NCBI GenBank assembly: GCA_038211855.1
Contig: JBBQVE010000008.1
Coordinates: forward strand, 957 to 64,956
Origin: Candidatus Saccharimonadales bacterium
GTDB lineage: Bacteria > Patescibacteriota > Saccharimonadia > Saccharimonadales > SZUA-47
Direction of reading: 5' to 3'
DNA length: 64,000 nt
The notes under the pieces are model-generated. The model ran no database searches. It was not told the origin of the DNA and was given only the letters and a program-made list of their open reading frames with translations. A program made the translations under genes and the position numbers. Below are positions 6,116 through 56,482 of the stretch, piece after piece (position 1 is the first letter of the stretch; each line of letters begins with the position of its first letter).

Positions 6116-7897
6116 ATGAGCGTACTGTCATCTGCACTCCAGAAGCAGGTCGAAGACACCCTTATTAAAGATGGTGTCCTGACACCAGAAAAACTTCACA
6201 AACTACGCACTGATTCGTCAGCCAGAAGCATGCCGCTCTTTTCCTATCTCGTCGCCGAAGACGTCATTAACAACGAAACGCTGACCAAGACGATCGCCCA
6301 CGTTACAAAGGTGCCATATGTCAATTTGAGTGCTGCCCACATTGATCCAAAAATCCTCTCGCTTTTGCCAGAAGAAGTAGCGGAACGATATATGGCCGTG
6401 CCACTTGGCGAAATGCAGAATCGACTTGTTGTTGCCATGCTCGATTCCGACAACGTCCAAGCCGTCGACTTTTTAAGTAACAAAATCGGCCGTCCGCTGA
6501 AGGTCTACGCCGCCAGTGAAGAAGGTATCCGCCAGGTCTTGAAGCAGTACCAGATGGACCTCGACAAAGACGTGGCCGGTGTACTTGATACTGAGCAGCA
6601 GGAAATCGACCTAGCCAATGGAACGGCCGATGGTAAGAACATTAAAACCATCGTGCAGGATTCGCCAATCAGTAAGGCGCTCTCGACGATTTTGGAATAC
6701 GCCGCCAAAAACCGCGCCAGTGATATTCACATCGAACCGCTCGAGAAAGAACTCAAAATCCGCTGTCGTGTGGACGGCGTACTGCGTGAGATTATGAAGC
6801 TACCCAAGACAACAGAGGCACCGCTGGTGTCTCGCATCAAGATCTTGAGTAACTTGAAGATTGATGAGCACCGCATTCCACAGGATGGTAACTTTACGAT
6901 TCAAGTTTCCGACAAGGCGATTGACCTACGTATTTCTATCAGTCCAGTCGTGTGGGGTGAACAGGTCGTGATTCGTCTTTTGGACAAGAGCGGCACGTCG
7001 TTACACCTTGAGGACATGGGCTACCACGGGCGCGCGCTCCGGACCATCCGTGAAGGCCTGAAGCAGTCCAGCGGCATGGTCCTCACCAGTGGGCCGACCG
7101 GTTCCGGTAAATCCACTAGTTTGTACGCACTTCTTTCGGAAATAAAAAGCGACGAGATAAACATCGTCACTCTTGAGGATCCAGTTGAATATAAGATGAG
7201 CGGTATCAACCAGATTCAAGTGAATGCCGACGTTGGTCTAACGTTTGCCTCTGGACTGCGCTCGATCTTGCGTCAAGACCCGAACGTCGTCATGGTGGGA
7301 GAAATCCGCGATAAAGAAACTGCCTCGTTGGCGGTGCAGGCGGCTTTAACGGGCCACTTGGTGTTCAGCACGCTGCACACTAACAGCGCGGCCGGTATCT
7401 TGCCACGTTTACTCGATATGGGCATCGAACCGTTCCTGATTGCTAGCACGGTGCGTACGGTGATTGGCCAGCGACTGGTGCGACGTGTGGTGCCGGGCGG
7501 CGAAACGTATGAGAGCAGTGCACCTGATACAGCGGCGATCAAATCGGTGCTGGGGGCAATGTTGCCGCAAAGCGAAGCCGAACTCAAGGCCGCCTGTGAA
7601 GATTTGGGCTATCCAAGCTTGCCTCTTGCCACGCAAAACGCTTATACTTTAACCAAGGGCAAGGTAGACTCAGCGAGCCCCGATGGTTATAAGGGTCGGA
7701 TGGGACTGTATGAAGTCTTCAACATTAGTGGAAACGTTCAGGATTTAATCCTGAAACACGCCACAAGTGCTGAGATTCAGAAGGCCGCCGAAAGCAATGG
7801 CATGATAACCATGCGCCAGGACGGGTATCTCAAAGCGCTGGCCGGTGCCACCACAATTACAGAAGTAAACAGGGTGGCAGCAACCGATGCGGCATAA
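6116..7897 (+). CDS. pilB: Type IV pilus extension ATPase PilB (GspE family)
   Basis: 593 aa. Walker A GPTGSGKST, plus TLEDPVEY and LRQDPNVVMVGEIRD boxes. N-terminal GspE-N-like domain. Confidence 0.9.
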   Translation: MSVLSSALQKQVEDTLIKDGVLTPEKLHKLRTDSSARSMPLFSYLVAEDVINNETLTKTIAHVTKVPYVNLSAAHIDPKILSLLPEEVAERYMAVPLGEMQNRLVVAMLDSDNVQAVDFLSNKIGRPLKVYAASEEGIRQVLKQYQMDLDKDVAGVLDTEQQEIDLANGTADGKNIKTIVQDSPISKALSTILEYAAKNRASDIHIEPLEKELKIRCRVDGVLREIMKLPKTTEAPLVSRIKILSNLKIDEHRIPQDGNFTIQVSDKAIDLRISISPVVWGEQVVIRLLDKSGTSLHLEDMGYHGRALRTIREGLKQSSGMVLTSGPTGSGKSTSLYALLSEIKSDEINIVTLEDPVEYKMSGINQIQVNADVGLTFASGLRSILRQDPNVVMVGEIRDKETASLAVQAALTGHLVFSTLHTNSAAGILPRLLDMGIEPFLIASTVRTVIGQRLVRRVVPGGETYESSAPDTAAIKSVLGAMLPQSEAELKAACEDLGYPSLPLATQNAYTLTKGKVDSASPDGYKGRMGLYEVFNISGNVQDLILKHATSAEIQKAAESNGMITMRQDGYLKALAGATTITEVNRVAATDAA

Positions 7898-10336: not shown

Positions 10337-10897
10337 ATGTTAAACAAAGTACGAGAATTTAAAAAAGAGGCCAAAGGGGCGAAGGCTACCGGCTTTACTA
10401 TCATCGAAGTTATGATTGTGTTGGCAATCGCCGGCCTTATTATGGCAATCGTATTCGTGGCTATTCCACAGTTGCAGCGTAATACCCGCAACACAACTGC
10501 GAAAGATGTTTTGAACCGCGTAAAGGCCGAAATGGACTCGTATTCAACCAATAACAATGGTAACTATCCAAAAAACGTCGCTGAATTTGGTAACGTCGTT
10601 GGTGGTGCTGCAATTGCTGCTGGTACGAGCTTTACGAGTCACTATCTTAGTAACGTCGGCGTGACCGACCCTAAGACTGGTACGCCGTTCGGTTTCAACT
10701 TCATCGCTTCTGGTACCTTCACACTACCTATAGACGTAACCGCACCCGCAACTGCTCGTGTTGTTAACTACTACTACAACGCGAAGTGTTCGGGTGAGAC
10801 TGTCATTCTCGGTAGTGGTACTGCAGTCGCCTCTCGTAACTACGCAATGGCTGTCTACCTTGAGGGTGGCGCTATCTACTGCGCAGACAACCAGTAA
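10337..10897 (+). CDS. pilA: Type IV major pilin (prepilin with N-methylation motif)
   Basis: 186 aa. The leader ends in G, then FTIIEVMIVLAIAGLIMAIVF (G|FTIIE with Glu5). C-terminal Cys pair. Has its own promoter and a strong terminator. Confidence 0.85.
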   Translation: MLNKVREFKKEAKGAKATGFTIIEVMIVLAIAGLIMAIVFVAIPQLQRNTRNTTAKDVLNRVKAEMDSYSTNNNGNYPKNVAEFGNVVGGAAIAAGTSFTSHYLSNVGVTDPKTGTPFGFNFIASGTFTLPIDVTAPATARVVNYYYNAKCSGETVILGSGTAVASRNYAMAVYLEGGAIYCADNQ

Positions 10898-10916
10898 CCA
10901 TAGACTCGAGTATCCC

Positions 10917-10946
10917 AAAAACACCGCCTCCGGAGGCGGTGTTTTA
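10917..10946 (+). terminator. Rho-independent terminator after the pilin gene
   Basis: A-run, then a perfect GC-rich inverted repeat acaccgcctcc/ggaggcggtgt, then TTTT. Confidence 0.75.
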
Positions 10947-10965
10947 CTTGTAACGCGCTATAATC

Positions 10966-11778
10966 ATGCTCATGCATATACTTATCAGTGTTTACTTCTT
11001 CATCATCGGCCTTTGCTTCGGTAGCTTTGCGATGGCCACCGCTTGGCGTCTCAAGAAAAACAAACCTTTTGGTGGCACCCAACGCTCGGTTTGTGAGTAC
11101 TGTAAACATAAACTGGCGGGTAAAGACCTCGTGCCACTTTTTAGTTGGCTCTCTTTACGCGGCACATGTCGTTATTGTCACAAGAAGATCTCTATCGGGT
11201 TGCCGTTAGCAGAACTCGCAGGCGGACTTGTGTTTGCGCTTTCCTATCTGTGCTGGCCGGATGGCTTCGTCGGCTGGCTTCAGATTGCACGTTTTGCCTT
11301 ATGGAGCCTGAGCCTCATTCTCCTGCTTATCCTCTTCTTCTATGACCTTCAGTGGTATATCCTACCGAATAAAGTCATCTATCCGCTCTGGTATTTAAGT
11401 GCGACTGACTTTGCGCTCCGTTTTATGCAGAAGCCAAGTCTGCACACACTCCTATTGGGGCTAGGGGCGGTTGTCGTCGGCTCAGGACTGTTCTGGCTGT
11501 TTTACACGGTGTCTAAAGGTACATGGATAGGCTATGGCGATGTGCGGCTCGGTATCGCCATCGGTTTATTGATTGGTACACCGGTCATGGCAGCGATAGT
11601 CATATTTGCCGCTTCACTTATCGGGGTCGCTGTGGCTTTGCCGGGGCTGTTGAGCCGCAAACGCTCCCTCACGAGCCGACTGCCATTCGGTCCCCTTCTC
11701 ATAATCGGTCTTATTTTGGTCCGGCTTTTCGGACAAAAAGTTATAGATTGGTACACTGTCCATCTTTTGTTGATGTAA
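10966..11778 (+). CDS. pilD: Prepilin peptidase / N-methyltransferase PilD (peptidase A24)
   Basis: 270 aa polytopic protein. Cys-rich CEYCKHKL...CRYCHKKI zinc-ribbon segment after TM1. YGDVRLGIAIG and FGPLLIIG aspartyl-peptidase-type regions. Confidence 0.85.
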   Translation: MLMHILISVYFFIIGLCFGSFAMATAWRLKKNKPFGGTQRSVCEYCKHKLAGKDLVPLFSWLSLRGTCRYCHKKISIGLPLAELAGGLVFALSYLCWPDGFVGWLQIARFALWSLSLILLLILFFYDLQWYILPNKVIYPLWYLSATDFALRFMQKPSLHTLLLGLGAVVVGSGLFWLFYTVSKGTWIGYGDVRLGIAIGLLIGTPVMAAIVIFAASLIGVAVALPGLLSRKRSLTSRLPFGPLLIIGLILVRLFGQKVIDWYTVHLLLM

Positions 11779-23844: not shown

Positions 23845-23852
23845 TATATAAT

Positions 23853-24491
23853 TTAGACTCGTGGATCAACCGCACCGACTGCCAAGAGTTCAACGGATGG
23901 ATCGAGCGTCTGACGTATTTCTGTCAGAAGTTCAGGGCTTATCATAGTAGCATTTGAGCCAGCTACAAGACCCAACCTTATAATCACTGGCGTGATGACA
24001 CCGACTTTTGCAGGTGTGCGGTCTACCGCTCCTATTGTGCTACGAGCGTTTGCCTTCTCGCCAGCTATAAGCACGCCGTCCGCGTAGAAACCATTTGAAA
24101 CATCAGTCAATGCAGCTTCAATAGTAAGGGCGCGATTTTTCTTATGAAGGGAGAGTCTTGTGAGCCGTAATTTAACCGAATTTCTTGCGGACGCCTCCTC
24201 TAAGATTCCACGCTCAATTAAGTCGTCCGAGAGACGCATTATCTTGGCATGTGTAGCCAGGTCTTGAAAGCCGAGTCCATTTTTAGCACGTAATGCCACC
24301 CAATCATCGGTGCTAACATAGCTGACTCCTGGTAGTCGACGTGGTCTCAAGTGAGAGCTAGGCGGTAACTTTCGACGGAAATTTTTTATGAAGTCATGCA
24401 TCCATTCACTGGCTACCGGTCGTCCAAGAGAGGGCTCCAGATGTTGTTCCTGCGCAAAATTACTTTGTTCAGGGTTATATTGCATAGACAT
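23853..24491 (-). CDS. Hypothetical protein
   Basis: The track ORF extends to 24650, but that part overlaps the upstream SGNH gene. Trimmed to ATG 24491 (MSMQYNPEQ..., 212 aa). No motif recognised. Confidence 0.5.
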   Translation of the reverse strand: MSMQYNPEQSNFAQEQHLEPSLGRPVASEWMHDFIKNFRRKLPPSSHLRPRRLPGVSYVSTDDWVALRAKNGLGFQDLATHAKIMRLSDDLIERGILEEASARNSVKLRLTRLSLHKKNRALTIEAALTDVSNGFYADGVLIAGEKANARSTIGAVDRTPAKVGVITPVIIRLGLVAGSNATMISPELLTEIRQTLDPSVELLAVGAVDPRV

Positions 24492-24495
24492 AAAT

Positions 24496-45084: not shown

Positions 45085-45705
45085 ATGTCGAATGGCTTTA
45101 GCTTGCAAGAAATCATCATCTTCCTGGGCGTTTTGTTCTTTTCTACGTCTTTGCATGAGCTGATGCACGCTTTGGTGGCGTACAAGTTGGGTGACGATTT
45201 GGCGCATTCCCGCGGCCGGATTTCGCTCAACCCGATGGCTCACATTGACCCGTTTTTGACCATCCTTCTACCGCTGGGAATGCTACTGCTCGGTATACAG
45301 CCGATCATGGCCGCCAAGCCGGTGCCGATTAATGGGTCGCGTCTGACCGAAGCTGAGATGGCGTTGGTCGGTGTGGCTGGCCCGCTCACTAATTTGGCAC
45401 TGGCCATCATTGCCGGTGGTATTTTGCGAGTCACGAACTTTGGTGGTCTCGCCTTTGCTATTGTCTCGGCGTTTCTCTTCCTTAATATCGCTTTGTTTGT
45501 GTTTAATATGATCCCGTTCCCGCCGCTCGATGGTTCACGCGTACTGTACGCCTTTGCGCCCGAGTCAGTCCAGCGGGTCATGCAACAGATTGAAGGCTTC
45601 GGTATCTTTGGGGTGATTATCTTGATTACCGTTTTCTCTTCGACTCTGAGTCCGCTACTAGGATCAATCGAGGATCACCTGATACGTCTACTATCGGGGC
45701 GTTAG
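45085..45705 (+). CDS. Site-2 protease family (M50) zinc metalloprotease
   Basis: 206 aa polytopic protein with HELMHALVA (HExxH) and NMIPFPPLDGSRV. Confidence 0.75.
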   Translation: MSNGFSLQEIIIFLGVLFFSTSLHELMHALVAYKLGDDLAHSRGRISLNPMAHIDPFLTILLPLGMLLLGIQPIMAAKPVPINGSRLTEAEMALVGVAGPLTNLALAIIAGGILRVTNFGGLAFAIVSAFLFLNIALFVFNMIPFPPLDGSRVLYAFAPESVQRVMQQIEGFGIFGVIILITVFSSTLSPLLGSIEDHLIRLLSGR

Positions 45706-45757
45706 TGTCGTGCCGCAAAAGCTATTTGGCGAGAACTATCCCGGCCTTCTATACTAA

Positions 45758-45925
45758 GGGGAGCTAGCGCTGGGTAGAAATATGATTTTCTGGATACGAA
45801 AATCAAGGGAGCCACTTTAGGCCGCGACCTTGGTTGCGGTACAGCAGCTCCCACCTTGCGTTTATGCCGGGTAAATCATTCTATCCGCCGGTCTGCTTCG
45901 GTAGATCGGCCGCTAGCCTTTTTTG
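45758..45925 (+). ncRNA. Unclassified structured RNA / long structured 5' leader fused to tRNA-Pro
   Basis: Promoter-like TTGGCG-N18-TATACT (45726..45755). No credible ORF. Hairpins at 45784..45804, 45822..45839 (CUUG loop, nested in GGGAGC/GCUCCC 45807..45852) and 45887..45910 (UUCG loop). End-to-end helix GCUAGCG (45763..69) / CGCUAGC (45911..17). U6 tract at 45919..45924. Confidence 0.35.
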
Positions 45926-46001
45926 CGGGGATTGGCGCAGTTGGTAGCGCGCGCGGCTGGGGGTCGCGAGGTCGTGAGTTCAAGTCTCGCATCCCCGACC
46001 A
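45926..46001 (+). tRNA. tRNA-Pro (anticodon GGG)
   Basis: Acceptor CGGGGAT/ATCCCCG, anticodon stem CGCGG/TCGCG with loop CTGGGGG, T-arm GTGAG-TTCAAGT-CTCGC, encoded CCA. Confidence 0.9.
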
Positions 46002-46020
46002 TCATGTATACTTAGTGCTT

Positions 46021-46608
46021 ATGAATTCCTACGATGCAATTGTTATTTTAGGCTCGCAGCCTGATCCTGACACATGGCAGTTTCCGTCGTATATCTATGA
46101 TTGCTTGCAGCGTGCCAAATTAGTATACGATGAGGGCACTGCACCGCTTATTATCACCTCTGGAAAGTGGAGTATTGCACTCGAAAACAAAGGCATAAAA
46201 CAACCATTCCGTGAATGCGATTTGGCGGCCAACTACCTGAAACTCATCGGTATGCCAGAAGACAAAATCCTCAAGGAGGGTGAGTCGAAAGACACCATTA
46301 GTAATCTCTATTACCTAAAGACTGAGCTGTTCAAGCCGCGCGCCATGCAGCGACTTTTGTTCGTGGTGGCAGATTTTCGGGTACCAAGGCTCAAATTTTT
46401 GTGTGAACGTATCTTGGGATCTGATCACAAAGTAGAGTTTGCGTCGCTTGCTGCAGAGATAAGTGAGTCGTATGACGAGCCAAACACCATGAAGGTTCAA
46501 AAAGAGTTCCTCGAACCGATGAAAACGGGTAATCATGAATGGCTGGCTGACAAATTTTACAGCGCGCCGATGTATAAATATTGGGCAGAACACGACAAGA
46601 AGCTATGA
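46021..46608 (+). CDS. DUF218 (YdcF/ElyC-like) domain protein
   Basis: The track ORF starts at 45856 across tRNA-Pro. Trimmed to MNSYDAIVILGSQPD (195 aa). Contains PLIITSGKWS and GESKDTISN. Confidence 0.65.
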   Translation: MNSYDAIVILGSQPDPDTWQFPSYIYDCLQRAKLVYDEGTAPLIITSGKWSIALENKGIKQPFRECDLAANYLKLIGMPEDKILKEGESKDTISNLYYLKTELFKPRAMQRLLFVVADFRVPRLKFLCERILGSDHKVEFASLAAEISESYDEPNTMKVQKEFLEPMKTGNHEWLADKFYSAPMYKYWAEHDKKL

Positions 46609-49399: not shown

Positions 49400-49480
49400 T
49401 GACTCCCACGGCGCTTACTTTTTATTCCTCATGATTTTAACAGATTGACCACCGAATGACAAGGGGGCAGAGCACATTGT

Positions 49481-49816
49481 TTAAAAGTACCAAGGTGACG
49501 CGTTGAGCGACGCCAGGGTCATAAAGTAAATTAGGACGACAGTGAGAATGAGAGTCAAGACCAGAAGACCAACTGCGCCAGCAATACTCCAGCCCAGTCG
49601 TTCTTTTTTGCTCCTCAGATAACGCGCAAGGAGAAATAACAAAATTACTCCCCAGACAGCAGAGGTAACGTTCGTTGCATGATTAGCACGTAGTTGGTCG
49701 TTAGATGGCGAAGTCAATGGGTTGATACGCGTCCAGTCGTTGAGAATGACGAGCCACATAAGTTGCGCCCCGAGGAGGAAAGGTGGAATTATTCTGGCTA
49801 CCGTGCGACGCTTCAT
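49481..49816 (-). CDS. Hypothetical membrane protein
   Basis: 111 aa with 3 TMs. Confidence 0.5.
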   Translation of the reverse strand: MKRRTVARIIPPFLLGAQLMWLVILNDWTRINPLTSPSNDQLRANHATNVTSAVWGVILLFLLARYLRSKKERLGWSIAGAVGLLVLTLILTVVLIYFMTLASLNASPWYF

Positions 49817-49821
49817 TACAG

Positions 49822-51339
49822 TTATAGTAACAGGCTTTTTGGTCGATATTGCAAAGCTTCGCCGATATGGGCGGTGGTGATGACTTTGCTTTGTTCTAAG
49901 TCGGCAATCGTACGAGCGATTTTGATGGTTTTGAGATAGACGCGTGCCGACAGCTGTAATTTAGCGGCGGCGGTGTTCAGTAGGGCTTCGGCGGTTGTCT
50001 CGAGCTGCGCTAATGCTTTGATTTGGCGCGTAGAAGCTGAAGCATTCAATGTCTCATTATTTTTGTAGCGGACGGCCTGAGCGGCTCGTACGCGTTCCAC
50101 GACCGAACGCAAACGAGTACTGTCAGTCTGAGCTGTGTTGTTTTTGAGTAAACCGTCATGTTCGACCGCATCGACCGTCAGATGAATATCGATACGGTCT
50201 TGGATTGGGCCTGAAATCTTTTTGTTGTAGTGCTGGATTTGTGCAGCCGTGCAGGTGCATTCATGTGAGCTACCCAGGTAACCACAGGGACATGGGTTGC
50301 GAGTTGCGACCAGCATGAACTTGGCAGGGAATTCCACTGTTTCTCGGGCGCGGGCGACGCTGATGATGCCATCTTCGAGCGGCTGACGGAGTGCTTCAAT
50401 CGTAGAACGGCGAAACTCCGGTAGCTCGTCCAAAAACAACACGCCGCCATTGGCCATGGTAATTTCGCCCGGCTTTGGATTGCCGCCGCCGCCAATAATC
50501 GCCATGTCACTGGCACTGTGATGGGGTGACCGAAAAGGCCGTTTGTAGATAACACCAAGTGGTTCTTTGGTACCGAGACTGTGCAAATGGGTGATTTGTA
50601 GGGCCTCCTCACGAGAGAGGCCTGGCAGTAGTCCGGGCAGTGTGCGCGCCAACATGCTCTTGCCCATGCCCGGCGGCCCGCTAAACAAGATATTATGTCC
50701 ACCTGCTGCAGCAATCAATATCGCTCGTTTGGCTCGCTCTTGGCCGACGACCTCGGCAATGTCGACTTCAACCCGCTCTTGTTGGGCCGGCGCTTCATAC
50801 CAGCCGGCATCAGTTTCGATGAGATCTAGTGGATCTGCGCCCGTAAAATGCAGGTAAAGTTGCTTGAGCGAAGTAATTGGTAACACGGTGAGTTTTGGCA
50901 CAAGTCGGGACTGCGACAAGTTTCCTTCCGGGACGACCATTACTGTCATGCCAGCTTTACGGGCAGCCAATAGTTTGCCAACGATGCCGCGGATTGGATG
51001 CACAGTACCATCAAGGCCAAGTTCACCAAAAAACGCTGTTTCGGCAGGACAAGTAATGGCTTTAGTTGCCTTCAGAAGAGCAGCGGCAATCGCCACGTCG
51101 AAACTACTGCCAAGTTTCTGTAGATCAGCCGGTGCTAGGTTGATTGTCACGCGCTTTTTTGGAAATTGCAGATCAGAGCTACTAAACGCCGCCCGCAGAC
51201 GTTCTCTTGATTCGTCGACGGATTTGTTGGTCATACCGACAACGGTGACGTTCGGTAACCCGTTCGTTATGTGACATTCTATGTCGATTAGCAGCCCTTC
51301 GCCACCGACAATCTGCACAGAGTGTGTCTTAGAGCTCAT
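49822..51339 (-). CDS. comM: ComM/YifB Mg-chelatase-like AAA+ protein
   Basis: 505 aa. N-terminal Lon-like domain, Walker A GPPGMGKSMLA, LFLDELPEF, and a Cys cluster CPCGYLGS..HECTC. Confidence 0.88.
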   Translation of the reverse strand: MSSKTHSVQIVGGEGLLIDIECHITNGLPNVTVVGMTNKSVDESRERLRAAFSSSDLQFPKKRVTINLAPADLQKLGSSFDVAIAAALLKATKAITCPAETAFFGELGLDGTVHPIRGIVGKLLAARKAGMTVMVVPEGNLSQSRLVPKLTVLPITSLKQLYLHFTGADPLDLIETDAGWYEAPAQQERVEVDIAEVVGQERAKRAILIAAAGGHNILFSGPPGMGKSMLARTLPGLLPGLSREEALQITHLHSLGTKEPLGVIYKRPFRSPHHSASDMAIIGGGGNPKPGEITMANGGVLFLDELPEFRRSTIEALRQPLEDGIISVARARETVEFPAKFMLVATRNPCPCGYLGSSHECTCTAAQIQHYNKKISGPIQDRIDIHLTVDAVEHDGLLKNNTAQTDSTRLRSVVERVRAAQAVRYKNNETLNASASTRQIKALAQLETTAEALLNTAAAKLQLSARVYLKTIKIARTIADLEQSKVITTAHIGEALQYRPKSLLL

Positions 51340-51419
51340 GCCGTTGCCCAGCCTTCAGGAAAGAAGGGCCAGCAGCAGGGCACGATTAATTTGATTTTTG
51401 GGCGCTTACTAAGACTCAT
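51336..51419 (-). CDS. Small upstream ORF (27 aa; 40 aa if started at 51458) translationally coupled to comM
   Basis: GGGAG (51431..51427) lies 7 nt before ATG 51419. Its stop TGA 51338..51336 overlaps the comM ATG 51339..51337 (ATGA). comM has no SD of its own and its frame closes 6 codons upstream. Peptide MSLSKRPKIKLIVPCCWPFFPEGWATA. Confidence 0.4.
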   Translation of the reverse strand: MSLSKRPKIKLIVPCCWPFFPEGWATA

Positions 51420-51735
51420 ATGAGTACTCCCTAAATTAGATTTGATTGTGTAGAACATACCGCCTTTTGCAGTAGGTGATCGCATCATTACACATGGACT
51501 TTGGCTACTGCAAGCACAAGCGTTTCAAGGAGTGAGAAAAATTACAGGGAAAGTAAAAGGCCCCAGCCTTTTTATTAGATGGAGCCCCTTACTTTTGTAG
51601 TTTTTTTGTCTTGTATTTTAGGTTTTTGCCTGACGCACCCGACCATTTGTTTGAATGGAACAACGGCTTGCGAGAAGCCGTTGTTACAGATGCGTTTTTA
51701 TTTTTGAGCACTTTTTTTATTCAAGTGCTATGCAT

Positions 51736-51764
51736 ATCCTACAAAGCATTAGCGCTGAAGTCAA
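51736..51764 (-). promoter_or_regulatory. Candidate promoter for the sORF-comM transcript
   Basis: Read on the minus strand: TTGACT (51764..51759), 17-nt spacer, TAGGAT (51741..51736). It would give a ~300-nt structured 5' UTR. Confidence 0.35.
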
Positions 51765-52350
51765 CAACAATTTTTAAGATTTTCTACCCACCAGGCAACT
51801 TTTCTACATCGAACGTTTTACATACTGCAAGATCCTATCTGATAAAACATTAGAAAAACCTGAATTGGTACGATACGGCTGGTGAAAAATTCCTCCAAAA
51901 AAAGTATTTTTTGTTTGTCAAAAACTGCAGACGAGCCATAAAACTTGAACTACTTTGTATTGATAGGCACGCATTGGCCACCATCACACCCACTTCCAGC
52001 GACCGCGGCACTCACTGCAAGCGTTTCCAATGATTCTTCCATGAATGTACAGAAAAACCGCACACAGCGGTCATGATTGTTGCAACGCAACAGCTGAGGC
52101 CTCCTTAGGAGAAATCATAAAATCGCTCCAATAGTGGCGAGCCTTGCTGCTGCTTGCGACGAGCCAAGTCTCCAGGAGGGGGCTTTGCGATACCCGTTTG
52201 CAGTAAGTAGGGCAACAAGCAGCATGCTTACTATATGTATGCAGTTTTTAAGCGAAATAGGGGTACTTCACATATAGTTACTGATGTTAAAAAAGCAACT
52301 TTATATATTATTAAATTATAGATCTGTAACTCCTTAATACAGTGTTGGTA
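51765..52350. other. ORF-free segment containing a ~190-nt element closed by a long-range helix
   Basis: No ORF of 60 aa or more. ACTGCAAGCG (52014..52023) pairs with CGTTTGCAGT (52195..52204). Nested helices at 52030..52040/52108..52118, 52058..52070 and 52079..52091. Strand and function unknown. Confidence 0.3.
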
Positions 52351-52575
52351 TGCTATTTATTACAACGTAAATTTGCATAAATAAGTATTGCTATTTTTAA
52401 ATATGTATGCTAATAATAGTGGAGTCAGGAAAAAACATAAAAACAATAAATATATCGTTCTTCTCGGCCTTAAAGCCCCGAAGAGCGGTCAGTCACACCA
52501 GCGGGAAGCAACTGCCTAATAGTTAATTTATAGCGGCGGATTTGCTTCCCCTGGTTCCTAGAATCTCCTTTGTAG
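52351..52575 (+). promoter_or_regulatory. AT-rich triple extended -10 region plus structured leader upstream of the ATPase operon
   Basis: TGCTATTTAT (52351), TGCTATTTTT (52389) and TGCTAATAAT (52408) resemble the TGCTATACT promoters seen elsewhere in the window. Hairpins at 52460..52485 and 52503..52550 (9-bp GGGAAGCAA/TTGCTTCCC base). Confidence 0.35.
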
Positions 52576-52611
52576 AAATTGTGCCTAGGGTATGGGCACA
52601 ATTTTTATTTT
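52576..52611 (+). terminator. Intrinsic terminator 12 nt before the start codon of the next gene
   Basis: 10-bp stem aaattgtgcc / ggcacaattt, 8-nt loop, then TT-A-TTTTT. ATG at 52623. Confidence 0.55.
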
Positions 52612-52622
52612 TGTGAGAAGAT

Positions 52623-52970
52623 ATGATAAGAGTTATGAATAGAAAACGTCTCACCATCTTTGTTATCAGTCTGTTGGTCTTCTTGGTGTTCATCCTGACA
52701 ACTTCACCGTATCGTTTGCCACTTATCCTTATAGTCGTACCTGGAGCCGCTTTTATTATTGCCGTTCACAGCATCTTGTCGCTGTCTGCGGATAAGGTAC
52801 CTATCCAGCCAAAAGCTGCCCGCAGCCTCGTTACTGTCCTGACGATCATCTTATCGGTGCTTGCTGTCTTACTCTCGGTCGGGCAGCTGACCTTCCGTGA
52901 TTTTGCGTTATTGCTAGCACTGGCATTATTCGGCATGTTTTATTTGTCGCGTATGGGAGATAAAGGATGA
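52623..52970 (+). CDS. Small 4-TM membrane protein
   Basis: 115 aa with four hydrophobic helices. No SMR or CrcB signature seen. Confidence 0.55.
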   Translation: MIRVMNRKRLTIFVISLLVFLVFILTTSPYRLPLILIVVPGAAFIIAVHSILSLSADKVPIQPKAARSLVTVLTIILSVLAVLLSVGQLTFRDFALLLALALFGMFYLSRMGDKG

Positions 52971-53476: not shown

Positions 53477-56400
53477 ATGCCCACGTTACTCATCATACTT
53501 ATGGTTATCGTCCTCGTACTTTGTATCGGGGGGTTCATTGCGTTCCTCCACGTGCGCAAACTGTGGCGCGAGCAGAAGAACTTTGAGCGCGGCCTCAAGA
53601 TGGTGCCGCTGCTTATTCACTTGCCACCGCAGAGTGATGACACCGAAATCGGCCAGCGCGACGCTCGTGACGTTATGGACGAAACAATCAGTAAAGCGCA
53701 GGTGCTGTATAACATTATCGCTAGCACCGTGCAGAAGGGCTTTAAGACTAAGTTTTATGGCCAACGACACTTCGCTTTTGAAATCGTCGGTGCCAAAGGC
53801 TTCGTCCACTTTTATGCCGCTGTACCAGTCGCTTTAGTTGATGTTGTGACGCAGGCTGTGGTGAGTGCATACCCAACCGCACGACTTGAAGAAGTCGCTG
53901 AGCATAACATTTTTAGTCCGGTCGGAAAGATAACGGCGACGATTGGCGGCGAGCTGGTTCTGAAAGAGAACTTTGCGTACCCAATTGCCACCTACCAAGT
54001 GATCAAGCGTGACACCATGCAATCGATTCTGAACGCCCTCTCAACACTCGAAAAAGAGGACGGCGCTGGCATCCAGATTCTGATGCGTCCGGCCGATGCC
54101 TCGTGGCGCAAACACGCGCTTTCGGTTGCCATGAAGAAGCGCAAAGGCAAAGATAAAAAGAAGGGCGCCTCGGCCTTTGGCGGCTACTTGCGCCAGATTA
54201 TCTATGCTATCTCCAAACCTCCAGAAGACAAAGGGAAGGGTGACGAGCATTCGCTTTCTGGCGTCGATCAATCAATGGTTGATTCGATCGAGGAGAAGAC
54301 CAAGTATCCAGGGTATGAGGTGCTGATCCGCGTCGTGGCGTCTTCTAATATCAGTCAGCGTGCCCAGGCAGTTTTGAGTAACATCGTCGCTACTTTTGCT
54401 TTGTTTGACGCCCCTGGCAGTAACGGCTTCAAGTACACCAGCGCCAAAGATATTGATTCTTTTGTGACAGCTTACATCATGCGTTTCTTCCCGCCAGAGC
54501 AGACTAAAACGATTTTGAACGCCGTCGAACTTGCGACGCTGTTCCACTTTCCGGATCAGAGTGGTGTGCCAACCAGCCAGCTCGAACGCCAAGCTTCCAA
54601 GCAAGTCGATGGACCGCGCAACGTCCCTGACGAAGGCTTACTGCTCGGCTACAACGTTTTCCGTGGCGCCAAGAAGGCCATCCGTTTGGCACAGAATGAT
54701 CGTGCTCGTCACATGTACGTGGTGGGGCAGACTGGTACTGGTAAATCGACCTTTCTTGAGAACTTAGCGCTGCAGGATATGCTGGCTGGCGAAGGCTTTG
54801 CCTTTATTGATCCGCACGGCGACACGGCTGAAAAACTACTCAGTATGGTGCCAAAGGAACGCACCGAGGACGTAATCTATTTCTGCCCGGCAGATATGGA
54901 CTATCCGATCGGCCTTAATCTGTTTGAGTTCCACTCCCCTGAACAAAAAGACTTCCTGATTCAGGAAGCCATCAACATGCTGTATAAACTTTATGACCCG
55001 CAGCACCAAGGTATTATTGGGCCACGCTACGAGCACTGGTTCCGTAATGCCGCGCTCACCATCATGGCTGATCCAGAAGGCGCCACATTTATCGATATTC
55101 CAAAGGTCTTTACCGACGCCAAATATGCAAAACAGAAGCTGGAATTCGTCACCGACCAGACCGTGCAGGATTTTTGGAACAAAGAAATGGCCTCCACCAG
55201 CGATTATCACAAAAGTGAAGTGTTAGGGTGGTTCGTCAGTAAGTTTGGTGCCTTCTTGAGTAACGAAATGATGCGCAATATCATTGGCCAGACCAAAAGC
55301 TCATTTGACCTGCGTGAAATCATGGATCAGAAGAAAATCCTGCTGGTGAACCTTTCTAAGGGCCGTACCGGCGAACTAAACAGCAAGCTGCTTGGTATGA
55401 TCTTCGTCATGAAATTCCAGGCGGCTGCCATGAGTCGCGCCAGTATTCCGGAAAGCGAACGTGTCGACTTCTGTCTGTACGTTGATGAGTTTCAGAACTT
55501 TAGTACTGACAGCTTCGCGACCATCATGTCCGAAGCCAGAAAGTATCACCTCAACTTGATTGTGGCCAACCAGTTTACGACCCAGTTGAGCGAAGAAATC
55601 CGCGATGCAGTCTTTGGAAACATGGGTACGATTGTGGCCTTCCGTATCGGTCAGAACGATGTTGATTCTTTGACCAAATACTTCCAGCCACTGTTTGATG
55701 GTGACGACCTGCTTCGTGTGCCTAACTATAATGCTGTTGTCCGTACGTTGATTGGCGGCGTCCCAACTCAGCCGTTCAGCATGACTGGCTTGCCGCCACT
55801 TGGGACGCCGAACAAGGGCTTGGGCGATGCGCTCAAACAGCTTTCTGCCGCTAAGTATGGCCGTCCAAAGTCAGTTGTCGAAAGTGAGATTTTTGAACGT
55901 TTGGCAACCAAGGATGATAATCCTGCTGCCGGCCCCACGCAACCGCCACGTGCCGGCAGTATGCCGTCAGCTGCTGCGCCACCAGCGCCAAAGCAACCTG
56001 CCAACTTCTTGGATGATTGGTTGAATAAAAAGCAGACGAACAGCTTCAAGGCGCCAAGCTCACCGTTCAAGCAGCCAGCCACGCCCGCCGGAGCACCAGC
56101 CCCGATCGTAGCAGCCCCTGTCGCGGCCCCACGGCCTCTTCAGCCAGCTCCACAAGCACAAGCGGTTCAGATGCCTGCTGCCGATGATTTGCCCGTCTTA
56201 GAGCCTTATGTGCCGCCAGCCGCCGCCGTTGCCGCCGCCACGCCACCAATGCCACAGGCAGTCAGTTCTTCGACGCAGCCGACACAAGGCACTACGACCT
56301 CTATTCCGGCACCAGACCTTACTGTCGATGACATTGTCGATCACCCGTATCAAGAGCCTTTGGCGCCGAAGCTTACTTCACCCGATGAAGGCGTGCTCCT

Positions 56401-56482
56401 GCTTCGCCAATCAGGCGACAATAAACCCAATGAACACACCGAGATCAAAATCGACCAAGACGGCAAGTTCAATAACGAGTAG
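53477..56482 (+). CDS. Membrane-anchored FtsK/HerA/VirD4-superfamily P-loop ATPase (T4SS coupling-protein-like)
   Basis: 1001 aa. N-terminal TM. Walker A VVGQTGTGKSTFLEN and Walker B FCLYVDEFQNF. TraD/VirD4-like GTIVAFRIG. C-terminal ~220 aa is P/A/Q-rich low complexity. Confidence 0.7.
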   Translation: MPTLLIILMVIVLVLCIGGFIAFLHVRKLWREQKNFERGLKMVPLLIHLPPQSDDTEIGQRDARDVMDETISKAQVLYNIIASTVQKGFKTKFYGQRHFAFEIVGAKGFVHFYAAVPVALVDVVTQAVVSAYPTARLEEVAEHNIFSPVGKITATIGGELVLKENFAYPIATYQVIKRDTMQSILNALSTLEKEDGAGIQILMRPADASWRKHALSVAMKKRKGKDKKKGASAFGGYLRQIIYAISKPPEDKGKGDEHSLSGVDQSMVDSIEEKTKYPGYEVLIRVVASSNISQRAQAVLSNIVATFALFDAPGSNGFKYTSAKDIDSFVTAYIMRFFPPEQTKTILNAVELATLFHFPDQSGVPTSQLERQASKQVDGPRNVPDEGLLLGYNVFRGAKKAIRLAQNDRARHMYVVGQTGTGKSTFLENLALQDMLAGEGFAFIDPHGDTAEKLLSMVPKERTEDVIYFCPADMDYPIGLNLFEFHSPEQKDFLIQEAINMLYKLYDPQHQGIIGPRYEHWFRNAALTIMADPEGATFIDIPKVFTDAKYAKQKLEFVTDQTVQDFWNKEMASTSDYHKSEVLGWFVSKFGAFLSNEMMRNIIGQTKSSFDLREIMDQKKILLVNLSKGRTGELNSKLLGMIFVMKFQAAAMSRASIPESERVDFCLYVDEFQNFSTDSFATIMSEARKYHLNLIVANQFTTQLSEEIRDAVFGNMGTIVAFRIGQNDVDSLTKYFQPLFDGDDLLRVPNYNAVVRTLIGGVPTQPFSMTGLPPLGTPNKGLGDALKQLSAAKYGRPKSVVESEIFERLATKDDNPAAGPTQPPRAGSMPSAAAPPAPKQPANFLDDWLNKKQTNSFKAPSSPFKQPATPAGAPAPIVAAPVAAPRPLQPAPQAQAVQMPAADDLPVLEPYVPPAAAVAAATPPMPQAVSSSTQPTQGTTTSIPAPDLTVDDIVDHPYQEPLAPKLTSPDEGVLLLRQSGDNKPNEHTEIKIDQDGKFNNE

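Follow-up and report, generated by a model that had tools for sequence, protein, structure and literature searches.

The largest intergenic gap in the 64,000-nt stretch of contig JBBQVE010000008.1 analysed here (below, the window) lies between comM and the operon of a VirD4-like ATPase, at positions 51340-52622 (1283 nt). We interpret this open reading frame (ORF) desert, with a probability of about 65%, as a compound, divergently transcribed control region that is conserved in a family-level lineage of Saccharimonadales-like Patescibacteria. One end, on the minus strand, carries element A, read as a small RNA (sRNA) unit; the other, on the plus strand, carries element B, read as an attenuator. 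The desert is neither one large RNA nor a dead gene. Elements A and B with their promoters account for about half of it, and the remainder is spacer plus a small coupled upstream ORF (uORF).

The gap was defined on a greedy, mechanical ORF map of the 64-kb window, in which the median intergenic distance is 40 nt. It is the largest gap when ORFs of at least 100 amino acids (aa) are counted; with ORFs of at least 60 aa, the 80-aa frame at 51611-51853 is its sole interruption. An earlier reading of the sequence alone (the sequence-only reading) had described the segment as an ORF desert in a tightly packed window, which the map bears out, and as non-coding, which holds for most of it: 84 nt at the left edge (51336-51419) code for the uORF, which is below the 60-aa threshold of that reading. 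The sharp drop in GC content that it had pointed out is also real (0.29 at 52200-52500, compared with 0.49 window-wide); at 51900-52200 the GC content is 0.46-0.53, near the coding level. A scan of the window with Rfam 15 found RNase P RNA and six tRNAs and gave no match within 51340-52622 at gathering thresholds. In a permissive E-value mode, the gap gave only chance-level hairpin matches (≤24 bits, compared with gathering scores of 50-100), and scans of the loci of four relatives matched neither element. The earlier statement that the segment belongs to no assignable family thus stands for the window and for these relatives.

Relatives were located as ComM homologues (56-80% identical) and their contigs compared; a DNA-pattern scan of metagenomes contributed two further loci, two such scans of viral contigs gave no matches, and a ComM scan of genome contigs returned only relatives of ≤45% identity, all without elements A and B. 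The resulting comparison set comprises 10 species including the window, all from one lineage, whose named neighbours are Candidatus Saccharimonadales. In all relatives compared, the gene order is gyrA-gyrB-PKD-19x aa-DUF8128-13x aa-11x aa-[gap]-comM-infC-rpmI-rplT. A gap of 0.9-1.6 kb lies at the same place in every syntenic relative except L015, where it is interrupted by an intact 232-aa HAD hydrolase gene. A further close relative (contig P0003, ComM 73%) has a gap of 1592 bp, whose DNA lies outside the comparison. Since gap and synteny are held in the relatives, the ORF desert is a conserved feature of this lineage. Pairwise blastn of the gaps gave exactly two conserved blocks, one per end. 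Conservation is limited to these ends and does not extend to the centre. The sequence-only reading had proposed structured RNA(s) or long regulatory leaders among its explanations, and two covarying elements at the gap ends support this; that the ends lie on opposite strands, in different transcription units, was not part of it, nor were the DnaA boxes or the coupled uORF described below.

Element B, a probable leader upstream of the ATPase operon

Element B and its surroundings contain the following features.

52283..52366, plus strand: region upstream of promoter PB, a likely control region, with two short islands, GATGTTAAAAAAGCAAC (52283-52299) and TTATTACAAC (52357-52366)
about 52388-52613, plus strand: element B as a whole, consisting of promoter, two-hairpin RNA and intrinsic terminator
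52388..52417, plus strand: predicted promoter PB, with -35 TTGCTA at 52388-52393 and a TG(C)-extended -10 TAATAAT at about 52411-52417
about 52423-52426, plus strand: predicted transcription start site (TSS) of PB, from the promoter position
52423..52450, plus strand: A-rich 5' segment of the leader, the P0 hairpin region
52451..52563, plus strand: core of element B, with P1 at 52456-52487, the linker GAGCGGUCAGUCA at 52483-52495 and P2 at 52498-52554
52574..52613, plus strand: intrinsic terminator, AGAAAUUGUGCC-UAGGGUAU-GGCACAAUUU plus UUAUUUUUG

The structure of the core is well supported by covariation. The structure predicted by RNAalifold has 35 base pairs, and compensatory changes are seen at 14. 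In the 10-species alignment (A5), 92.5% of cells are paired, compared with 35-50% when the partners are slid by 1-3 columns; double-sided changes are found at 15 of the 35 pairs, compared with 1-7 in the slid controls, and none of 500 shuffles reached the observed covariation score. About 35 cells are G.U, which places the RNA of element B on the plus strand. The window sequence folds with a z-score of -5.9. A covariance model (R1) found exactly one match per locus, at 75-123 bits, the lowest of these scores being that of the most distant relative (ComM 56%; 75 bits, E = 2e-17), and a search of the rest of the window and of distant candidate phyla radiation loci found no further copy.

The linker GAGCGGUCAGUCA is invariant among the species compared, and the distal part and internal loops of P2 are conserved in sequence (AAUAGU, GCGGAUUU). 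Upstream of the core, a P0 hairpin with an A-rich loop is present in 8 of the 10 species, as UCAGC...GCUGA or, in L029, GUAAG...CUUAC; its 3' arm is missing in the window and in L022. No conserved kissing-loop or pseudoknot pairing within B was seen by eye or in minimum free energy (MFE) folds.

The sequence-only reading had noted a terminator abutting the next gene and promoter-like boxes on both strands; these are present, and the relatives conserve them. On the plus strand, PB is kept as TATTGCT...TGTGCTA(A/T)AAT, and L029 has TTGACA-17-TAGGGT (read by eye). From the end of the terminator it is 9 nt to ATG 52623 and 21 nt to the conserved ATG at 52635. It is present as a hairpin with U-tract in 10/10 species, with at least five distinct stem sequences, and the order PB, leader, terminator, start codon is likewise the same in all ten. 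In 6/10 species (the window, L022, L016, L017, L023 and L029), the terminator has no promoter-like site behind it. With no other promoter between terminator and start, the operon in the window and most relatives could be expressed solely by reading through the terminator of B.

The region upstream of PB is conserved more weakly. When the upstream regions of the 10 species were aligned on the B core, the first island (52283-52299) appeared in the relatives as a TGTTA-N3/4-TAACA palindrome, and blastn gave weak islands within 52283..52366. Both islands upstream of PB are candidate protein-binding sites. At the equivalent of the second island (52357-52366), L022 has an exact relaxed DnaA box, TTTTCCACA.

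Element B thus combines a sense-strand 5' untranslated region (UTR) position, a covariation-supported structure and an adjoining terminator, and is most likely a riboswitch-type or protein-dependent attenuator leader. The predicted product of PB, a promoter of sigma-70 type, is a leader RNA of about 190 nt whose terminator would sit directly ahead of the ribosome-binding site (RBS) of the three-gene operon. Transcription attenuation would then be set by the P1/P2 domain, which may sense a ligand, as in riboswitches, or a protein.

Element A and the comM side

At the other end of the gap, the conserved block runs in the direction of comM.

about 51541-51764, minus strand: element A as a whole, consisting of promoter, 76-nt core, variable spacer and terminator
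51800..51808, minus strand: degenerate DnaA-box position, TGTAGAAAA, two mismatches from TGTGGATAA
51736..51764, minus strand: predicted promoter PA, with -35 TTGACT at 51764-51759, a 17-nt spacer and -10 TAGGAT at 51741-51736
about 51729-51730, minus strand: predicted TSS of PA; the core block begins six nt past the -10
51655..51730, minus strand: core of element A, with hairpin H1 at 51707-51729, the A-rich linker CAAAAAUAAAAACGCAUCUGU and hairpin H2 at 51659-51685 (11-bp stem, CUCGC loop)
51596..51654, minus strand: variable spacer, A/C-rich and G-poor, with the 3' strand of a closing helix (ACGCAUC with GAUGCGU-like partners)
51541..51595, minus strand: intrinsic terminator, a hairpin at 51550-51595 followed by CCUUUUACUUU

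The 76-nt core is 91-99% identical to the window in 8/9 relatives and 80% identical in L015. In the same comparisons, the DNA identity of comM is 57-67%, and RNase P RNA, comparable in two relatives, is 67-75% identical. PA, predicted to be a strong promoter, is kept in all relatives as TTGACA/T-17-TAGGAT, or in L029 as TTGACA-17-TAAGAT with a different spacer, and scores 9-10/12 against the promoter consensus in all species. The core of L029 is still 97% identical although its PA spacer differs, so that conservation starts at the predicted TSS.

All 162 stem cells of A are paired (162/162). The stem changes consist of four double, compensatory ones (in L015 and L027) and three single ones, each of which gives U.G on the minus strand and A.C on the other. 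This asymmetry, together with the compensatory changes, argues for an RNA read in the direction of comM rather than a pure DNA palindrome. A covariance model (R2) found one copy per locus, and the window RNA folds with a z-score of -8.2. Two independent Logan contigs (L001 and L014) both terminate at the equivalent of window position 51684, inside the perfect palindrome of H2, as if the inverted repeat had broken the assembly there.

Downstream of the core, the spacer holds a semi-conserved GAYACAAAAACUA motif (alignment A4), and a closing helix around H2 is predicted in 7/10 species, with a shifting register. An intrinsic terminator (hairpin and U-tract) follows at the same position in 10/10 species with differing stem sequences; that of the window has an A-tract on its other side and looks bidirectional. 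With its own promoter and its own intrinsic terminator around a short non-coding unit, A has the organisation of a stand-alone small RNA, and a separate small-RNA transcription unit is its most likely identity. PA is predicted to drive an RNA of about 185 nt, of which the first 76 nt are near-invariant, followed by the variable spacer and the terminator. Such an RNA might act in trans or bind a protein, possibly under the control of DnaA.

Other identities for the A region were considered. The 80-aa frame at 51611-51853 is rejected as a gene, as it runs antisense to the A core and is broken by 1-nt indels (L015, L022, L026) and by a stop in L015. Frames of 40 aa over the core, on either strand, are likewise broken by indels or a stop and show no synonymous variation. 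6S RNA is rejected for A: there is no RF00013 match in the gap, and the fold of A consists of separate hairpins, in contrast to the 6S rod of some 180 nt with its central bubble. In L029, a sub-threshold match to 6S RNA that adjoins a tRNA was found elsewhere (10849-10984, minus strand; 34 bits, with a gathering score of 46), and there is no equivalent match at window 45500-46200. The ACAAAAA/CAAAAAC motif, considered as a protein site common to both leaders, is not distinctive within the window.

Between A and comM lie a lineage-specific stretch and the uORF.

51420..51540, minus strand: lineage-specific stretch with a candidate comM promoter and a hairpin at 51467-51513
51513-51485, minus strand: candidate proximal comM promoter, TTGCAG at 51513-51508, 17-nt spacer and TAATGA at 51490-51485, a weak consensus match
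51336..51419, minus strand: uORF of 27 codons, MSLSKRPKIKLIVPCCWPFFPEGWATA, with a TGA stop that overlaps the comM ATG (ATGA)
49822-51339, minus strand: comM/YifB, the left flank of the gap

The stretch 51420..51540 is alignable solely with the closest relative, L014 (about 85%). Boxes at a comparable place recur more widely: six species have TTGCAA-17-TACATT (8/12, a weak consensus match), with TTGCAA in the terminator loop and TACATT just past the U-tract, L029 has TTGGAA-18-TACAAT, and L022 has an analogue. These conserved promoter-like boxes suggest that comM probably has a weak promoter of its own.

The overlap of the uORF stop with the comM start suggests translational coupling. The uORF was found in the window and in L014 (ComM 80% identical), and the two copies differ by seven substitutions and no indels. 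Six of the seven are synonymous and one is non-synonymous, and the other two frames of the stretch hold stops. The excess of synonymous differences indicates that the uORF is translated and under selection. The Shine-Dalgarno sequence and surroundings of its start, GGGAGTACTCATATGAGT, correspond to those of the comM start in relatives (L015, L022), which suggests an 84-nt duplication or insertion at the 5' end of comM.

These features bear on whether A could instead be a cis-acting 5' leader of comM, an attenuator or riboswitch, with comM expressed mainly from PA and the terminator as a regulated checkpoint mirroring that of B. In 10/10 species comM follows element A and is oriented like it, the distance from the A terminator to the comM start is just 35-55 nt in six of them, and the succession of promoter, domain, terminator and gene is that of B. 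However, synteny is conserved over the whole region, so that the linkage of A and comM is not independent evidence for a leader. Since six species keep promoter-like boxes inside or behind the terminator, and the window, L022 and L029 have analogues, comM need not depend on PA; the window has 120 nt and the coupled uORF between terminator and comM; and near-invariant stems are atypical of riboswitch aptamers. We therefore regard a comM leader as the strongest of the alternatives, though rather unlikely, and prefer A as a separate small-RNA unit. As such a unit it could still modulate comM, by read-through from A or by occlusion of the comM promoter.

Central spacer, palindromes and DnaA boxes

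The two ends are separated by sequence of a different kind.

51809..52282, no strand assigned: central spacer, about 470 nt, unconserved

The central regions of 6 species showed no significant blastn or tblastx similarity to one another, and folding in the central part does not exceed that of shuffled sequence (z = -1.8 and -0.7). The central helices and shared arm repeats, which the sequence-only reading had counted among the features of the segment, are not conserved. One of the central features is a terminator-like hairpin at 52056-52072 (minus strand; ACCGC-UGUGU-GCGGU plus UUUUUCUGU), with a perfect AAGGAGG about 35 nt upstream of it, also on the minus strand; both lack conservation in the relatives.

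The cargo of the gap centre differs by species, with the HAD hydrolase gene in L015 (8963-9661), a 74-aa ORF in L026 (5512-5736) and a 64-aa ORF in L028 (4879-5073), which suggests that insertions are tolerated between the two divergent promoters. The centre of the window (about 51809-52282) might accordingly be taken for what is left of a decayed gene or of a mobile DNA insertion, since the intact L015 gene and the small called ORFs lie at the equivalent position and the GC content at 51900-52200 is close to that of coding DNA. Against this, tblastn with the L015 HAD protein found nothing in the window gap, Pfam gave no match up to E = 1 for the ten longest stop-free stretches of the central part, blastn of this part against plasmids and phages gave no match, and terminal inverted or direct repeats are not beyond chance. 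With the six-species tblastx also negative, a remnant is unlikely; the decayed mobile DNA that had been proposed found no support in these searches, nor did a decayed protein gene, which the sequence-only reading had named as a refuting tblastx outcome. The centre is best seen as a neutral, fast-evolving and insertion-tolerant spacer.

Several observations weigh against the reading of the gap as two divergently transcribed RNA elements. The promoters, TSSs and termination events are sequence predictions throughout, and the 10 species compared come from a single lineage. For B, neither MFE folds nor inspection gave a conserved antiterminator pairing, and P1, P2 and the terminator coexist in full-leader folds. 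A good promoter-like site follows the B terminator in L019, and weak ones follow it in L026 and L027, so that B could be a free-standing sRNA in these species. For A, the covariation rests on three variant species only (L015, L017 and L027). The best duplex of the A linker with translation-initiation regions of the 64-kb window was -12.7 kcal/mol, which does not improve on shuffled linkers (mean of -13.6), and there is no consensus DnaA box in the window. Finally, the near-invariance of the A stems goes beyond what a purely structural RNA constraint usually brings about, and it is also compatible with protein-bound DNA palindromes.

The last point raises the question of whether the hairpins are DNA rather than RNA features, namely palindromic operators for dimeric DNA-binding proteins just downstream of both promoters. 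H1 (7-9-7) and H2 (11-5-11) are indeed perfect inverted repeats with almost invariant arms, they lie at about +2 to +75 of PA, a typical position for a repressor, and symmetric half-site changes can imitate covariation. Nevertheless, all three single-arm changes in A pair as U.G in the sense strand and give A.C in the other, which breaks DNA symmetry. Element B, with its G.U cells, has bulges and internal loops, and its 15 pairs with double changes are spread over 35 pairs and 110 nt, far beyond the size of an operator. In addition, the non-palindromic linkers are equally conserved, and each element has an intrinsic terminator at its end, on its own strand. We thus consider operators improbable and retain the interpretation of A and B as RNAs.

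Promoters regulated by DnaA are known elsewhere, for example those of dnaA or sda in Bacillus subtilis. The relatives resemble these in that one to three consensus boxes of like orientation immediately precede the -35 of PA at a constant distance: a perfect TGTGGATAA lies about 36 nt upstream of the -35 in 7/9 relatives. The likeness is incomplete in that the box of the window is degenerate (two mismatches) and that of L029 is inverted (TTATACACA, 6667-6675); L022 has TGTGGAAAA at this position. Three relaxed-consensus boxes stand in a row in L017 (9783-9820) and in L023 (5728-5765), and per relative locus of 10-20 kb, most of the exact relaxed-consensus boxes fall in the gap. The simplest reading of this pattern is that PA may be a DnaA-regulated promoter. 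That the gap is instead oriC, or a DnaA-titrating or -reactivating locus (datA/DARS-like) with the AT-rich 52230-52450 as an unwinding element, is scarcely credible: the concentration of boxes, the AT-rich segment and the presence of gyrB and gyrA 7 kb away would fit, but each relative has only one to three boxes, all directly upstream of PA at a fixed offset as for a transcription-factor site, the window has none that matches the consensus, the AT-rich segment coincides with the conserved promoter PB, and oriC identity is ruled out by this box count, by a cumulative GC skew that climbs monotonically over the window without a turning point at 52 kb, and by the lack of a nearby dnaA, with no dnaA gene or DnaA signature motif in any frame of the window or the loci.

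Known systems and flanking genes

Element B resembles riboswitch and attenuator leaders in its sense 5' UTR position, its covarying multi-helix domain with invariant joining nucleotides, a terminator right before the RBS and the lack of a promoter after it. It differs from them in that no Rfam 15 match and no conserved antiterminator pairing were found, and the operon that it precedes, with a VirD4/TrwB-like DUF8128 gene, is not a known riboswitch regulon.

For element A, three comparisons are informative. Trans-acting sRNAs of the enterobacterial RybB/OmrA type have a conserved 5' domain, a variable middle and a terminator hairpin. A is like them in its own promoter, conservation from +1, a single-stranded A-rich linker, a variable middle and an intrinsic terminator; it is unlike them in that the conserved part is 76 nt with two fully conserved stems, far beyond a seed, and that no target was detectable in the window. 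L20-mediated attenuation of infC-rpmI-rplT was reportedly described by Choonee et al. in 2007, and like the Bacillus-type L20 leader (RF00558), A precedes comM-infC-rpmI-rplT and has a terminator at its end. However, A has no RF00558 match, and infC has its own strongly conserved promoter, TTGTCA-17-TGTTAAAAT, with a short leader and an AUU (ATT) start, downstream of comM (window 49400-49480, minus strand, and the equivalent regions of L014-L027). Thus, A does not head the infC-rpmI-rplT operon and is rejected as an L20-leader analogue. Among the motifs of a 2017 survey, drum, skipping-rope, DUF3800-I and FuFi-1 share with A a short length, many invariant nucleotides, a following Rho-independent terminator and a fixed gene neighbourhood (PMC5737381); A has no sequence or structure in common with them (Rfam scans negative) and is so far confined to a single Saccharimonadales-like lineage. 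Of the 224 motifs of that survey, lysM-TM7 alone is named as specific to TM7, and it is unrelated to A (PMC5737381).

The literature searched contains no description of elements A or B and no regulatory sRNA candidate in Saccharibacteria; both RNA elements are previously undescribed. Gene regulation in Patescibacteria is described as unexplored in a recent perspective, in which riboswitches are seen as a useful means of inducing expression (PMC11665869). The locus thus offers two concrete, testable RNA elements in a group in which little is known of gene regulation. If B is a sensor, its ligand would reveal the signal that controls the DUF8128 ATPase, and if A is a regulator, it would rank among the earliest candidates for a regulatory sRNA in the group. 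The gap is also an example of how a long stretch of this kind in a reduced genome can be something other than one large RNA, as about half of it is neutral spacer.

A reading that joins both ends is more doubtful than the two elements taken separately. A and B would be new Saccharibacteria-specific RNA classes. A, with its DnaA-box promoter and a constraint exceeding that of RNase P RNA, would tie the neighbouring DNA-processing genes, those of the comM helicase and the VirD4-like translocase, to replication or DNA status, for instance by sequestering a protein or modifying RNA polymerase. B would be a riboswitch for a metabolite, plausibly nucleotide-related, that gates the operon of an ATPase resembling type IV coupling proteins in organisms unable to make nucleotides. 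We consider this combination unlikely as a whole.

Three plus-strand genes make up the right flank of the gap; their products are a membrane protein of 115 aa and two further proteins of 138 and 1001 aa. Two of these genes are placed as follows.

52635..52970, plus strand: first operon gene, the small membrane protein, whose start is probably ATG 52635 (MNRKR...) and not 52623
53477-56482, plus strand: third operon gene, the 1001-aa DUF8128 ATPase, whose relatives carry Pfam DUF8128

The later start of the first gene, four codons past ATG 52623, is indicated by a start context, (A/G)TGAAYARAAAA, that is kept among the relatives. A family search with this 115-aa protein gave no match. The 1001-aa protein is weakly similar to the coupling ATPases TraD, VirD4, TrwB and DotL, with the similarity confined to the P-loop region; the flanks named in the sequence-only reading, comM and a VirD4-like ATPase operon, are thus confirmed with this qualification. 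Among the best 120 matches, more than 100 Saccharibacteria proteins are 68-91% identical to the DUF8128 ATPase, compared with 52-80% for ComM, and it may be a core, possibly essential, Saccharibacteria gene. Orphan homologues of VirD4-like coupling proteins are widespread in Patescibacteria, usually far from virB4 and of unclear role (PMC12102498), and the DUF8128 ATPase resembles members of this group.

Two further features of the window were noted. The second-largest ORF-free gap, at 23845-24495 (651 nt), has no Rfam match. On the comM side, the interval from comM to the infC promoter holds a 111-aa hydrophobic ORF (49481-49816, minus strand), both in the window and in L001, an identical contig. 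This ORF is absent from every relative locus examined, where a spacer of 125-360 nt takes its place.

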